Assembly: GCA_010365135.1 (NCBI GenBank)
Contig: JAAFGY010000001.1
Location: 11,419-75,418, forward strand
DNA from: Flavobacterium sp.
GTDB taxonomy: Bacteria > Bacteroidota > Bacteroidia > Flavobacteriales > Flavobacteriaceae
DNA: 64,000 bases
Reading direction: 5' to 3'
Each line of letters opens with the position of its first letter. Within the stretch, counting starts at the first letter, position 1. Below are positions 8,240 through 50,636 of this stretch, one piece after another. The notes beneath the pieces were generated by a model that saw nothing but the letters and a program-made list of their open reading frames with translations, made no database searches and had not been told where the DNA came from. The position numbers and the translations under genes are program-made.

Positions 8240-8390
8240 CCCTAGCCCTGAGTGAAGTGGAAATCCTTGTGAAAAGAAAGGCTAATTTTTTCTTGCCAAA
8301 AAAGAGCGACCACCGGAAGCTCCTTTTTGGGTTTAGAAAAATAGCCTTTATTGAGCAAGATTGAAACGGAAGGCAGGAAACAGCTCCTGA
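8240..8390 (+). repeat. Long nested-hairpin element (Flavobacterium repeat, possibly Flavo-1-like RNA)
   Basis: Nested pairings CCTG/CAGG, AATC/GATT, CTTG/CAAG, AAAGGCTA/TAGCCTTT, TTTTTCT/AGAAAAA, CCAAAAA/TTTTTGG, GAGC/GCTC. The Flavo-1 resemblance is from memory only. Confidence 0.6.
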
Positions 8391-8395
8391 AAAAT

Positions 8396-9322
8396 CTAAA
8401 ACATATTCTTTTTCTTGAATAAAAGGACGCCAGAAACAGAGATTAAAAGGGAAATTGATAACACAATCCAAAATCCGAAAGGGGTATTTTCGAAATTATT
8501 AGGAACGTTCATTCCGTATAAACTCGCGACCAAAGTGGGGATCATCAAAATGATGGATATCGAGGTCAGCCTTTTCATTATGACATTCAAATTATTGGAA
8601 ATAACGGAAGCATAAGCGTCCATCATTCCGGTTAAAATGTTGCTATAAATGCTGGTTGTTTCTTCGGCCTGACGCAATTCGATTTCGACATCTTCGAGCA
8701 ATTCGGGGTCGTAGGTGTCTTTTTGGGCTTTCAAATTTTTGATTCTACGAAATAAAACGTCATTACCTTTCAAAGAAGTCACGAAAAAGACCAAACATTT
8801 TTCTATTTGCCACAAGGCTTGAAGTTCTTCGTTTTTGATGGATTCTTCGAGGTTGTCTTCGGCGAGTTTGATTCTTTGATTGATTTGTTTCAGGTATTTC
8901 AAAAACCAAATGCTTGAGGAAAGCAGCAATTTTAACACTAAATCGAAGTCGTTTTCAATTGAAATTTTCTTGCGTTTGGTATATAAAACAAAGTCAGAAA
9001 GGATGTCCGTTTGGTGGAAACAAAGGGAAACAAAAACATCTTCTTTGAACATTAAACCTAATGGTGCTGTGTTAAAGGGCAGTTTTGGATCGTTACTTTT
9101 GAAAGGAATTCGAAGAATGATAAGCGTCCAACCGTTTTCGATTTCGATACGTGGTCGCTCGTCAATATCTTCAATATCGCTGTAAAAATCTTCGGGAATA
9201 TGGAGTTCTTTGAGCAGAAATTTGGTTTCTTCCTTTGTGGGACAAACTACATTCATCCAGCAGCTGCCTTCACGATTTTCGGTTTGAGTTAAACCGACAT
9301 TGTTTTTGTAATACGTAATCAT
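8396..9322 (-). CDS. corA: CorA-family Mg2+/Co2+ transporter
   Basis: DIDERPRIE N-terminal motif; two C-terminal TM helices with YGMN signature. Confidence 0.92.
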   Translation of the reverse strand: MITYYKNNVGLTQTENREGSCWMNVVCPTKEETKFLLKELHIPEDFYSDIEDIDERPRIEIENGWTLIILRIPFKSNDPKLPFNTAPLGLMFKEDVFVSLCFHQTDILSDFVLYTKRKKISIENDFDLVLKLLLSSSIWFLKYLKQINQRIKLAEDNLEESIKNEELQALWQIEKCLVFFVTSLKGNDVLFRRIKNLKAQKDTYDPELLEDVEIELRQAEETTSIYSNILTGMMDAYASVISNNLNVIMKRLTSISIILMIPTLVASLYGMNVPNNFENTPFGFWIVLSISLLISVSGVLLFKKKNMF

Positions 9323-9373
9323 AATGTAATGCGATATTTAAGGAAAATCGCTACCATTATGCAACGACTATTC

Positions 9374-9412
9374 CTATGTGATTATACTTTTCTCCGAATA
9401 ATAATCGTCCAT
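9374..9412 (-). CDS. Putative leader peptide MDDYYSEKSIIT upstream of corA
   Basis: ATG at 9412 to TAG at 9376-9374, inside a ~110-nt leader downstream of a TAnnTTTG box; overlaps predicted alternative hairpins. Confidence 0.45.
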   Translation of the reverse strand: MDDYYSEKSIIT

Positions 9413-9437
9413 TGTGGATGTTTTATTTTAATTTTTG

Positions 9438-9445
9438 CAAAAGTA
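9438..9445 (-). promoter_or_regulatory. Sigma-A -7 element for corA
   Basis: TACTTTTG on the minus strand. Confidence 0.55.
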
Positions 9446-9603
9446 TCACTTTTAATCTTAAAAACTGCCAATATCGTATAAACTAAAAATATTGGCGTAG
9501 CCTTTATGATTAATTTGCAATTTTAGTGGTGTTAAATATTATTTTGAAATTTCGAAATATTGCGAATAAAGAGGTGAAATTAAACACTTCTTTTCTTTGG
9601 ATT

Positions 9604-9636
9604 AGACCTCAAAGGTTTTAAAAACTTTTGAGGTCT
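9604..9636. repeat. 33-bp REP-like palindrome
   Basis: AGACCTCAAAGGTTTT-A-AAAACTTTTGAGGTCT: 16-bp arms, one G.T pair, 1-nt centre. Confidence 0.75.
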
Positions 9637-9689
9637 GTCTTGAAAATCAATGAGTACTAAATTTAACTCTTGAATTGCAGTAATAATAA

Positions 9690-9726
9690 AACCATTAAGA
9701 AATTCTAAAAAATGATCTTAATGGTT
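9690..9726. repeat. Short inverted element AACCATTAAGA...TCTTAATGGTT
   Basis: Perfect 11-bp terminal inverted repeat with the same termini as 1925-1985. Confidence 0.7.
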
Positions 9727-9752
9727 ACCTATTGAAGCTTTAGCGCTGAAAA

Positions 9753-10127
9753 TTATTCTTTTTTCAAGACAATACTTATAGGATTATAAATTTGAGGAAT
9801 TTGTTTTGGATCGTTTTTATAAGTAGTGATTTTACCTTTTATACAGACATTTTTATCTTTCAAATCTTCGATTTTGATGTTTAGTTTTTCGAGGTAACTG
9901 TTTGAAATTACCACCGTAAAAACGCTCTCAGGATACGGCTTGTCTATGTTGATGTAATTGGTGGATTTACCCTCGGAGGCAAGTTTGAAGGAAACCACTT
10001 TTCCTATTACACAAACTTCTTTATCCATATAATCCTTGGCCTTGGCGGTGGTAATAGTGTCTTGCGAAAAACAATTTACCGATAAAACCAGAAGAAAAGC
10101 TATTGCAAAATTTTTCATTGTAAGCAT
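9753..10127 (-). CDS. Small exported OB-fold protein (putative nucleic-acid binding); alternative start 10118
   Basis: Signal peptide ending FSQ; pattern AKDYMDKEVCVIGKV...YINIDKPYP...FTVVI...VCIKGKITTY typical of stand-alone OB folds. Confidence 0.65.
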   Translation of the reverse strand: MLTMKNFAIAFLLVLSVNCFSQDTITTAKAKDYMDKEVCVIGKVVSFKLASEGKSTNYINIDKPYPESVFTVVISNSYLEKLNIKIEDLKDKNVCIKGKITTYKNDPKQIPQIYNPISIVLKKE

Positions 10128-10136
10128 TTTTTAAAA

Positions 10137-11240
10137 TTATTTTACTTCTTTTAATAAATAAATATAAACTGGAAAGTGGTCGCTATAGCCTATTTCGTTT
10201 TCCGAATGTCGAAGAGGATACCCGGCGTATCTTCCGAATTTTTCGATCATAAACGGTTTGTTATAAATTCCGGCTTTCCAATATTCAAAAGTAGAATAAT
10301 CATTCTTAATCAACGTTTCGGAAACCATAATCTGGTCAAATATATCTCCAGCATCACGATAGAATAATGATGAATTGCCCTCTTTTGCCATTTGTTCGAA
10401 AGGATTATAAACACCAAATTGTTGTACTTCTGCTTTAGTTAATTTTGCTCCAAGTCCCACTTTTACACTTTTATTATAGGTTCCGTCGTTTAGATCGCCC
10501 ATTAAAATGATTTTGGCTTTTGGATTTACTTTATAAACAGAATCCATCACTTTTCGCGCTAATCTTCCTGCGGCTTCGCGAAATGGGCTACTTTTTTTCT
10601 CACCACCGGAACGTGACGGCCAGTGATTTACCATTAAATTTATTTCTTCGCCGTCAAGAAAACCGGTCACTAAGAGAATATCTCTGGTGTAAACTCTATT
10701 GTCGAAGGCAATTTCTATTTTATCTTTGTCGGCTTTGTCTTCTTCGGTTTCTTTATCTTTTTCATTATTATTTCCTCGATAAATAATTAAGGGAATATTG
10801 ATAAAACTGGTAGGTTTAAAATATTTTTTTTGATATAAAAGTCCTACATCAATACCTCTTTTGTCAGGAGAATCAAAGTGCACAATTCCATAATCGTCTT
10901 TAATGATATTTGGTTGTTTTACTAAATCTTCAAGCACGCCACGGTTTTCGATTTCGGAACATCCAATAAAAGTGGGTGCTTCTTTTTGCATATCATTGGT
11001 ACCGATTTGCATCAATACTTTCGACAGATTTTCTAATTTTTGTTTGTATTTAGCTGAAGTCCAACGCTGAAGCCCTTTTGGAGTCCATTCCTCATCAAAA
11101 TTTGGGTTGTTAATAGTGTCGAATAAATTTTCGAAATTATAAAATGCAACTGTATGTACAATATATTTTTTCTGTTGGGCATTTGCCTGAATTACTGAAG
11201 AAAAAACAAACAAAACAGCAATAAAACTTTTAATTTTCAT
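10137..11240 (-). CDS. Exported endonuclease/exonuclease/phosphatase (EEP, DNase I-like) protein
   Basis: Signal peptide ending ANAQ; FYNFENLF, SEIEN, NHWPS, MGDLND, FDQI, YSDHFPV motifs. The ATG at 11240 fits the upstream promoter better than the track start. Confidence 0.88.
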   Translation of the reverse strand: MKIKSFIAVLFVFSSVIQANAQQKKYIVHTVAFYNFENLFDTINNPNFDEEWTPKGLQRWTSAKYKQKLENLSKVLMQIGTNDMQKEAPTFIGCSEIENRGVLEDLVKQPNIIKDDYGIVHFDSPDKRGIDVGLLYQKKYFKPTSFINIPLIIYRGNNNEKDKETEEDKADKDKIEIAFDNRVYTRDILLVTGFLDGEEINLMVNHWPSRSGGEKKSSPFREAAGRLARKVMDSVYKVNPKAKIILMGDLNDGTYNKSVKVGLGAKLTKAEVQQFGVYNPFEQMAKEGNSSLFYRDAGDIFDQIMVSETLIKNDYSTFEYWKAGIYNKPFMIEKFGRYAGYPLRHSENEIGYSDHFPVYIYLLKEVK

Positions 11241-50375: not shown

Positions 50376-50449
50376 TCCTTCTTAGCTCAGTTGGTTAGAG
50401 CATCTGACTGTTAATCAGAGGGTCCTTGGTTCGAGCCCAAGAGAGGGAG
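50376..50449 (+). tRNA. tRNA-Asn(GTT)
   Basis: Acceptor TCCTTCT/AGAGGGA; D arm GCTC/GAGC; anticodon arm TCTGA-CTGTTAA-TCAGA; T arm CTTGG-TTCGAGC-CCAAG; CCA not encoded. Confidence 0.95.
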
Positions 50450-50564: not shown

Positions 50565-50636
50565 AGCCCCGTAGTTCAACGGATAGAATGGGAGTTTCCT
50601 AAACTTTTGATCCGAGTTCGATTCTCGGCGGGGCTA
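50565..50636 (+). tRNA. tRNA-Arg(CCT)
   Basis: Acceptor AGCCCCG/CGGGGCT; anticodon arm GGAGT-TTCCTAA-ACTTT (two G.U pairs); T arm CCGAG-TTCGATT-CTCGG. Confidence 0.9.

Follow-up and report, generated by a model that had tools for sequence, protein, structure and literature searches.

An upstream open reading frame and alternative hairpins in the corA leader of Flavobacterium: a candidate translational switch

The window analyzed here, a stretch of 64,000 nucleotides (nt) from Flavobacterium sp. (contig JAAFGY010000001.1), carries on its minus strand corA, a gene for a CorA-family Mg2+/Co2+ channel, and we investigated the leader of this gene, a putative translational switch operated by a short upstream open reading frame (uORF). 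The corA product matches the Pfam family CorA (PF01544, E = 8.5e-50) and contains the YGMN (GMN) motif; its ATG lies at 9322-9320 on the minus strand, and the open reading frame (ORF) ends at 8396. Upstream of corA there is a −7 promoter box of the Bacteroidota type, and the transcript is predicted to start a few nucleotides downstream of it. Because the predicted start falls just after this box, the AUG of the uORF would be the first AUG of the mRNA. The uORF itself has 12 codons (ATG at 9412-9410, TAG at 9376-9374, minus strand). A first-pass annotation of the locus, made from the sequence alone, had named the box, the uORF, the corA AUG and two stems (stem 1 and stem 2), and all of its coordinates are correct on the minus strand. 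Stem 2 is called the sequestor below, since it buries the corA start, and a further hairpin that leaves the start open is called the anti-sequestor. The features are as follows.

8396..9322, minus strand: corA, CorA-family Mg2+/Co2+ channel of 308 amino acids (ORF call, Pfam)
9320..9335, minus strand: region 4, the 3′ arms of the sequestor (AUCGC at 9335-9331, CAUUAUG at 9326-9320), including the corA AUG (folds)
9341..9354, minus strand: region 3, GUAGCGAUU plus UUCCU, the 3′ arm of the anti-sequestor (folds, covariation)
9355..9361, minus strand: CAUAAUG, the 5′ arm of the outer sequestor helix and the loop of the anti-sequestor hairpin (folds)
9361..9375, minus strand: region 2, AGGAA plus AGUCGUUGC, the 5′ arm of the anti-sequestor and also the 3′ arm of stem 1 (constrained folds, pair counts)
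9374..9412, minus strand: uORF encoding MDDYYSEKSIIT, with UAG stop (sequence reading, conservation)
9396..9409, minus strand: region 1, uORF codons 2-6 (GACGAUUAUUAUUC), the 5′ arm of stem 1 (minimum free energy folds)
9408..9418, minus strand: possible weak mini-hairpin UCCA-CAA-UGGA around the uORF AUG (folding)
9438-9445, minus strand: −7 promoter box TACTTTTG, Bacteroidota type (sequence reading)

An ORF of 12 codons is by itself unremarkable in A/T-rich DNA, and in the window alone the feature as a whole is not clearly beyond chance; it is the comparative data that give it significance. We scanned CorA relatives in one genome per species and retrieved 80 loci of the ~543 relatives detected, 79 of which were usable, with one (L017) lost to a contig end. 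The 80 loci are mostly from Flavobacterium and include some metagenome-assembled genomes labelled Prolixibacteraceae, Cyclobacteriaceae, Chitinophaga, or Bacteroidales, these names being the depositors' labels and some of the assemblies being possibly mis-binned. CorA identity to the window ranges from 96% to 66% among the 80 genome loci, and reaches down to 45% when metagenome contigs are included. An AUG-initiated ORF of 8-17 codons starting with M-D-D-Y-(Y/H)-(S/P/Q; A in some) is present in 78 of the 79 usable loci, and the window, 77 related loci and L046 share AUG-GAC-GAU-UAU-(UAU/CAU). In most loci the uORF AUG is 81-93 nt before the corA AUG, and the gap between the uORF stop and the corA AUG is 41-59 nt. 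The 18-mer ATGGACGATTATTATTCG, which occurs once in the window (0.05 occurrences expected with three mismatches allowed), is found identically or as a near variant in almost every 140-nt corA upstream region read, even in leaders that are otherwise unrelated.

The alignment of relatives bears out the earlier observation of a uORF behind a −7 box: a TAnnT[TC][TC]G box is found 16-30 nt 5′ of the uORF AUG in nearly all related loci, and the stretch from box to uORF is free of any AUG in 108 of the 116 leaders having the box. The 79th locus, L009 (1397-1460), is the sole one with a mutated uORF AUG; the codon has become AAG, and an in-frame AUG 15 nt upstream gives MKHPQKDDYYSRKIKNNQE (MKHPQKDDYYS...). 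The 160 nt preceding the L009 corA start contain no TAnnT[TC][TC]G box.

An exact search for the 18-mer in metagenome contigs returned 94 matches, 64 of which are a short uORF before a CorA gene (CorA identity 45-96%, L116 being the lowest at 45%). The remaining matches lie within long unrelated ORFs (DnaJ-like, TolQ-like), were lost at contig ends, or are isolated chance matches. Among these 94 matches the 18-mer uORF precedes no other transporter gene, and the idea that the same leader serves other transporter genes was rejected because the matches away from corA fall in long ORFs or are due to chance. A first protein search had given close relatives only, and a second one, seeded with the 45%-identical CorA of L116, widened the phylogenetic range; the more distant orthologues carry MDDYHSTQLKLLIR, MDDYHASPYSYQLI, MDDYHAEISFLNPGI, and MEEGSEKRQIEYINLP upstream (MDDYHS.., MDDYHA.., and MEEGSE.. 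types).

The way in which the uORF varies suggests that it is translated. In 119 distinct leaders, 45 of which were found with the exact 18-mer so that the counts are biased upward, position 2 is D in 118 and E in one (acidic in 119/119), position 3 is acidic in 114, and Y occupies position 4 in 118. The residue pattern is no different in the 74 distinct leaders that come from genomes. Proline is rare among the uORF residues, and the conserved Tyr is bulky. Third-position changes in codons 2-5 are synonymous C/U transitions, His is written as both CAU and CAC, and the length of the uORF changes in 3-nt units (MDDYS, MDYYS). In group B, one of the groups of leaders described below, a 30-nt uORF runs without indel through 30 distinct sequences, and indels start directly after the stop. 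The 15 nt 5′ of the uORF are A-rich; near Bacteroidetes start codons AUG is depleted, and both secondary structure and upstream adenines modulate initiation there (PMC6847099).

Codons 2-6 are also near-invariant at their synonymous sites, including a UCG serine codon. One would expect few such codons in genomes rich in A/T. Selection acting only on the peptide is thus insufficient as an explanation, and the RNA or codon level is conserved as well. This near-complete nucleotide conservation is what one would expect if the conserved 18 nt were an untranslated RNA element, such as a site for a protein or small RNA or a direct sensor of Mg2+, in which the ORF is incidental; an ability of the mgtA leader RNA to sense Mg2+ directly has been proposed, and a mini-hairpin similar to that around the uORF AUG is predicted in 48 of 74 leaders, weak evidence given a mean of −1.46 kcal/mol vs −0.77 kcal/mol with the upstream 14 nt shuffled. 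An incidental ORF would not, however, account for an AUG that is invariant and in L009 is replaced in frame, for indels that keep the frame, for third-position changes that are only synonymous, or for a stop placed at region 2 in lineages otherwise unrelated in sequence. Moreover, there is no Rfam match to the leader, M-box and Mg sensor included, and the other ~70 nt are too variable for a conserved aptamer. We therefore consider an untranslated element very unlikely. A ribosome profiling (Ribo-seq) paper on Flavobacterium johnsoniae makes no mention of corA, the sole corA entry in its supplements being the E. coli gene. Sequencing runs that contain the window were all of metagenome DNA. Assembled RNA-run contigs matching L068, an F. 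johnsoniae-like locus, stop just before a perfect hairpin, which we put down to assembly breakage and regard as uninformative on 5′ ends or occupancy.

Between the uORF and corA, the window leader can adopt two folds. The sequestor consists of a perfect 7-bp (base-pair) helix of CAUAAUG (9361-9355) with CAUUAUG (9326-9320) around an inner helix of GCGAU (9351-9347) with AUCGC (9335-9331), and this OFF fold pairs the corA AUG along with 8-12 nt in front of it. In the minimum free energy (MFE) fold (−20.6 kcal/mol) the sequestor stands together with stem 1, in which GACGAUUAUU pairs with AAUAGUCGUU, region 1 binding region 2 when the leader is free of ribosomes. The anti-sequestor pairs region 2 (9375-9361), which in the window begins inside the uORF stop codon, with region 3 (9354-9341), and the resulting fold leaves the corA start open (−19.9 kcal/mol). 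The GCGAU of region 3 doubles as the 5′ arm of the inner sequestor helix, and anti-sequestor and sequestor therefore exclude each other; the energies of the closed and open folds differ little, as would be the case in a switch. The exclusion proposed in the first-pass annotation was a different one, between stems 1 and 2 through a shared CAU. This competition is negligible: because the MFE fold holds both stems, with only a 3-bp AUG:CAU extension in conflict, the two are not mutually exclusive.

Two in-frame stops end the uORF of the window, UAG GAA UAG (9368-9376, minus strand), and the second UAG, which lies inside the conserved GGAAUAG of region 2, is the stop used in most relatives.

The leaders fall into at least five groups that have unrelated sequence after codon 6 and the same layout throughout. 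The first hairpin (region 2:3) either overlaps the uORF stop or has its start 0-5 nt beyond it, and region 4, which resembles region 2 in sequence and is the alternative partner for region 3, abuts or includes the corA AUG. Group A comprises 30 leaders including that of the window, and group B comprises 34, including that of F. johnsoniae strain CI04 (L068). In group B the anti-sequestor is 90.8% paired with four compensatory pairs (27 cells; 0/500 shuffles reach this), and RNAalifold on its own predicts it as the consensus; the sequestor is 93.8% paired. An A-to-G change in column 67 of this alignment is accompanied by U-to-C changes in both of its partners, column 38 in the first hairpin and column 80 in the second, and where column 61 changes from G to A, the first-hairpin partner compensates from C to U while the sequestor partner, a U, tolerates both. 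Such co-changes are the signature expected of one strand serving two helices.

The pair counts of group A rest on structures named by the analyst: the sequestor is 83.8% paired with six compensatory pairs (28 cells; 0/500 shuffles; slid controls 19-54% paired), and the anti-sequestor is 86% paired with three compensatory pairs. Column 69, in region 3, co-varies with column 46 (anti-sequestor) and with column 87 (sequestor). Stem 1 is paired in 88.8% of cells with no compensatory change, because region 1 never varies, and its pairing was not found in groups other than A. Conservation of the pairings in orthologous leaders, which the first-pass annotation expected, is thus seen for stem 2, whose burial of the corA AUG is backed by the six compensatory pairs in group A, and not for stem 1, which is restricted to that group and lacks compensatory support. 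The comparison establishes that the uORF is conserved, that both alternative hairpins show compensatory changes, and where the stop codon is placed.

Region 4 takes a different form in some leaders. In L018 and L033, region 3 (AACGUUAUC) pairs with the first corA codons 1-4 (AUGAUAACG), and the sequestor is shifted into the coding region. In eight MDDYH-type leaders (L041, L046, L074, L075, L079, L114, L178, and L182), region 4 is a Shine-Dalgarno-like GGAGG/AAGGAG placed 7-10 nt before the corA start (element 15-25 nt before the start), and region 3 is its CCUCU complement. This is an unexpected form for region 4, given the reported inability of Bacteroidia ribosomes to recognize Shine-Dalgarno sequences (PMC13000453). 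The element may have a structural role only, or Shine-Dalgarno pairing may operate in the MDDYH lineages.

We modelled a ribosome on the uORF as a 28-nt unpaired mask and calculated the ensemble cost of opening corA from −12 to +10 in 78 leaders. The mean opening cost was 4.8 kcal/mol in free RNA, 3.5 kcal/mol with a ribosome on the first codons, and 9.4 kcal/mol with the uORF stop in the A site. The cost with the terminating ribosome exceeded that with the early ribosome in 74 of the 78 leaders, and the mean difference between them was +5.8 kcal/mol vs −0.19 ± 1.9 kcal/mol in dinucleotide shuffles. When the mask was slid codon by codon, the mean cost peaked with the last sense codon in the P site (~3.5 kcal/mol upstream, ~2.2 kcal/mol downstream), and the per-leader maximum was within one codon of that peak in 48/78 leaders, with ~20 positions scanned. 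The maximum was within one codon of the peak in 30/34 leaders of group B, 3/3 of group C, and 5/8 of group D; owing to the overlap between region 2 and the uORF end, the group A maxima were scattered across the last six codons. Mean costs for free RNA, early ribosome, and terminating ribosome were 5.3, 2.8, and 7.5 kcal/mol in group A; 4.3, 3.8, and 10.2 in group B; 3.6, 1.5, and 13.6 in group C; and 5.2, 5.6, and 11.6 in group D. The window itself gave 3.0, 1.8, and 10.5 kcal/mol, and its difference of 8.7 kcal/mol compares with −0.3 ± 1.9 kcal/mol in shuffles (0/300 reach it). The distant leaders L177, L181, L178, L182, and L114 behave likewise, and L175 shows a small effect only.

These costs decide on the direction of control. 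The first-pass annotation had held that ribosome occupancy of the uORF breaks stem 1, which competes with stem 2 for the CAU of AAUAGUCGUU-G-CAU, and that any uORF ribosome favors stem 2. In the model, a ribosome favors stem 2 only at the uORF end (10.5 kcal/mol in the window), whereas an early ribosome opens the start (1.8 kcal/mol), because region 2, once stem 1 is removed, binds region 3. Both stems do occur in the window, stem 1 is compatible across the window's lineage with 88.8% of its cells paired, and the free RNA of group A is more closed than with a ribosome on region 1 (5.3 vs 2.8 kcal/mol), so stem 1 matters there. Against this stand the MFE fold that holds both stems with a 3-bp clash only, and the absence of stem 1, with no compensatory change to support it, from groups B-E, which retain the uORF and the switch. 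We regard competition between stems 1 and 2 as extremely unlikely to be how the leader works; the first-pass account of competition and direction went wrong in detail because it missed the anti-sequestor hairpin. The anatomy that it had recognized in the leader, that of a translational attenuator with a uORF, a start-burying hairpin, and a competing fold, is present.

We propose, with a probability of roughly 70%, that the corA leader is a uORF-operated translational switch (translational attenuation), a reading that draws on the footprint model as well as on the alignments. The corA mRNA would start just upstream of a leader ORF of M-D-D-Y-(Y/H)-x and a variable tail. A ribosome finishing the uORF would cover region 2, region 3 would then pair with region 4, and the corA start codon would be buried (OFF fold). 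This should block initiation, because Bacteroidota ribosomes ignore Shine-Dalgarno sequences and need an unstructured start region. A ribosome pausing or aborting on DDYY would instead leave region 2 free to pair with region 3, and with this ON hairpin the start region would be open and corA would be translated. In the window's lineage an early ribosome would also keep region 1 off region 2 (1:2 / 2:3 / 3:4 logic), and as naked region 1 ties up region 2, a ribosome that stalls should be a better inducer of corA than one that falls off. It was judged unlikely that ribosomes reinitiate, or that the terminating ribosome unwinds stem 2, since a ribosome with the UAG in its A site would reach to ~9365, short of stem 2 at 9361.

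The output of the uORF could also be transcriptional, as in enterobacterial corL/corA, with a Rho loading site or a terminator exposed either alone or besides masking of the start. This mechanism has been demonstrated for corA and mgtA of E. coli and Salmonella. In most of the leaders studied here, however, the second hairpin engages the corA AUG together with the 8-9 nt immediately in front of it, and initiation in Bacteroidota is tuned by start-site secondary structure (PMC6847099). An intrinsic terminator in the leader was rejected because none of the leader hairpins on the corA strand has a run of U after it. We hold transcriptional output to be unlikely.

As to the signal, translational attenuation would respond to low intracellular Mg2+ if this impairs elongation through the acidic N terminus of the nascent peptide; we give Mg2+ an even chance of being the signal. 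Stalling of elongation on DDYY is suggested by analogy with enterobacterial leader peptides. Translation of MgtL (MEPDPT...) aborts within the first six residues, more so at low Mg2+, which induces mgtA, and early acidic residues pause or dissociate ribosomes (PMC11282234; bioRxiv 10.1101/2021.02.02.429294). Expression of corA in E. coli varies inversely with translation of corL; the latter responds to the Mg2+ level inside the cell and acts via Rho (PMC11552253).

Several observations, besides the conservation of synonymous sites described above, weigh against the switch or against its proposed signal. The z-score of the window fold is only −1.69, with 10/200 shuffles folding as well. RNAalifold on the full group A alignment predicts no structure, and from a trimmed alignment it gives the stem 2 core only, weakly, at −1.8 kcal/mol; with this and with structures named by the analyst, support in the window's lineage is weaker than in group B. 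The footprint model assumes equilibrium, masks a fixed 28 nt, and ignores folding kinetics, and the effect that it predicts is absent or reversed in L116, L020, L036, and L034. The uORF is absent in the orthologues L176 and L180, where corA is directly behind an Nramp gene, and in L179, where corA overlaps the upstream gene. Finally, di-acidic residues alone are reported to be insufficient to destabilize the ribosome, and bulky residues near the peptidyl-transferase center reportedly counteract destabilization (PMC11282234; bioRxiv 10.1101/2021.02.02.429294). MDDYY is an atypical destabilizing motif, and since bulky residues counteract destabilization, the conserved YY/YH is left unexplained by the acidic-peptide model.

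This last point would be relieved if the same uORF switch answered to another signal, such as the supply or modification of tRNAs for the conserved codons, Co2+/Ni2+, or translation capacity. Codons 2-5 (GAC GAU UAU UAU, or CAU/CAC at codon 5; window 9397-9409, minus strand) are all NAY (N, any nucleotide; Y, pyrimidine), a coincidence for which the acidic-peptide model gives no reason, and Y5 is replaced mainly by H, which is also NAY. The NAY codons of Asp, Tyr, and His are read by queuosine-modified tRNAs. There is, however, no known link of NAY-reading tRNAs to CorA; the variants MDSYQ, MDTYS, and MEEGSE break the NAY pattern and keep the acidic second residue; and the sole precedents for leader peptides of Mg2+ transporter genes sense Mg2+. 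We consider this version of the switch, with a signal other than Mg2+, very unlikely. More tentatively, and at somewhat less than even odds, MDDY(Y/H) may be an unrecognized sensory nascent peptide of Bacteroidota, through which the translating ribosome, blind to Shine-Dalgarno sequences, would sense Mg2+ or, for example, NAY-codon tRNAs in a purely translational switch, as an independent invention, in a second phylum, resembling mgtL and corL. The switch region would then have been rebuilt with unrelated sequence in each lineage, with the six-codon sensor kept fixed.

The element is provisionally undescribed. A permissive scan (E <= 10) of 8300-10200 with all 4227 families of Rfam 15 gave noise only and nothing in the leader, and scans at gathering threshold of the whole window and 17 related loci likewise gave nothing there; the M-box (RF00380) and Mg sensor models do not match it. 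No description of a corA leader peptide in Bacteroidota was found in the full-text literature, subscription-only papers being outside the coverage. This agrees with the first-pass annotation, which had recognized no described family.

In function the leader is likened to corL/corA and mgtL/mgtA, and in logic to trp and ermC, and by sequence or covariance model it is a member of none of them. It shares with corL-corA of E. coli and Salmonella enterica a short uORF in the corA 5′ leader, two mutually exclusive folds, and control by the leader rather than the promoter, with fuller uORF translation meaning less corA expression (PMC11552253). The two differ in that there is no sequence similarity and no Rfam match, and in that the enterobacterial output is Rho-dependent termination whereas burial of the start is proposed here; furthermore, corL has a UUG start behind a Shine-Dalgarno sequence and few acidic residues, whereas the present uORF has an AUG, no Shine-Dalgarno sequence, and an invariant MDD. 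With mgtL-mgtA (MgtL = MEPDPT...) it has in common the acidic residues right after Met and a Mg2+ transporter gene downstream, and there, as is proposed here, the gene comes on when the leader peptide is left unfinished. The present peptide, however, has DDYY and usually no proline, the gene encodes a CorA channel and not the P-type ATPase MgtA, and the output is likely translational.

As in trp leader, ermC, and cat attenuation, the model has the position of a ribosome pick between two overlapping hairpins. The logic of regions 1-4 in the trp leader matches the four regions in the window's lineage, and in ermC access to a downstream start is regulated, as is proposed here. Unlike in these systems, the gene is not one of amino-acid biosynthesis or resistance, there is no terminator, the putative sensing codons come directly after the AUG, and the masked element is a bare start codon region, not a Shine-Dalgarno sequence. 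The M-box (ykoK, RF00380) is also found upstream of Mg2+ transporter genes, corA-family genes among them, and turns them off at high Mg2+; it is a large conserved aptamer with no need of a uORF, whereas only the start of the uORF is sequence-conserved here.

Leader-peptide and translational control are barely charted in Bacteroidota, where start-site structure is the main lever because ribosomes ignore Shine-Dalgarno sequences. If the proposed switch is real, it would be a phylum-wide, sequence-defined element with a six-codon sensor far more conserved than the surrounding RNA, and Mg2+ homeostasis in Bacteroidota would be tied to the ribosome as in enterobacteria, by another peptide and with another output. 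For genome annotation, the element can be recognized simply by MDDYY with a corA start ~85-90 nt further on. The genetically tractable F. johnsoniae has a leader of the group B type (strain CI04, L068), which makes the proposal directly testable, and the variation among lineages offers a natural set of compensatory mutants.

Other elements were observed around corA. A strong hairpin, AGACCUCAAA(A)G...C(C)UUUGAGGUCU, lies at 9600-9640 of the window (minus strand; −16.2 kcal/mol, z = −3.8). It follows the upstream OB-fold gene at a distance of ~110 nt, with the corA promoter box another ~155 nt on, and is probably the terminator of the OB-fold gene despite having no U run after it. On the other side of corA, a Flavo-1 RNA motif (Rfam RF01705) is found at 8240-8384 on the plus strand (45.4 bits; gathering score, 42); it faces corA from the opposite strand, with 12 nt between it and the corA stop. 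The two close relatives L003 and L006 (2439-2583, minus strand) have Flavo-1 in the same arrangement, at 46-50 bits, and it was not found at gathering threshold in a further 15 related loci. Two tRNA genes (50376-50449 and 50565-50636, plus strand) also came out of the Rfam scan of the window as a whole.

In some of the distant orthologues corA comes after a gene for Nramp (Mn2+ transporter). Between Nramp and corA, L177 has a separate promoter box and an MDDYHS uORF. In L176 and L180, which lack the uORF, the Nramp stop occupies the place that the tail of the uORF would take, just before the conserved GUUAUUAAUC, and ribosomes terminating the upstream gene may have taken over the role of the uORF there.

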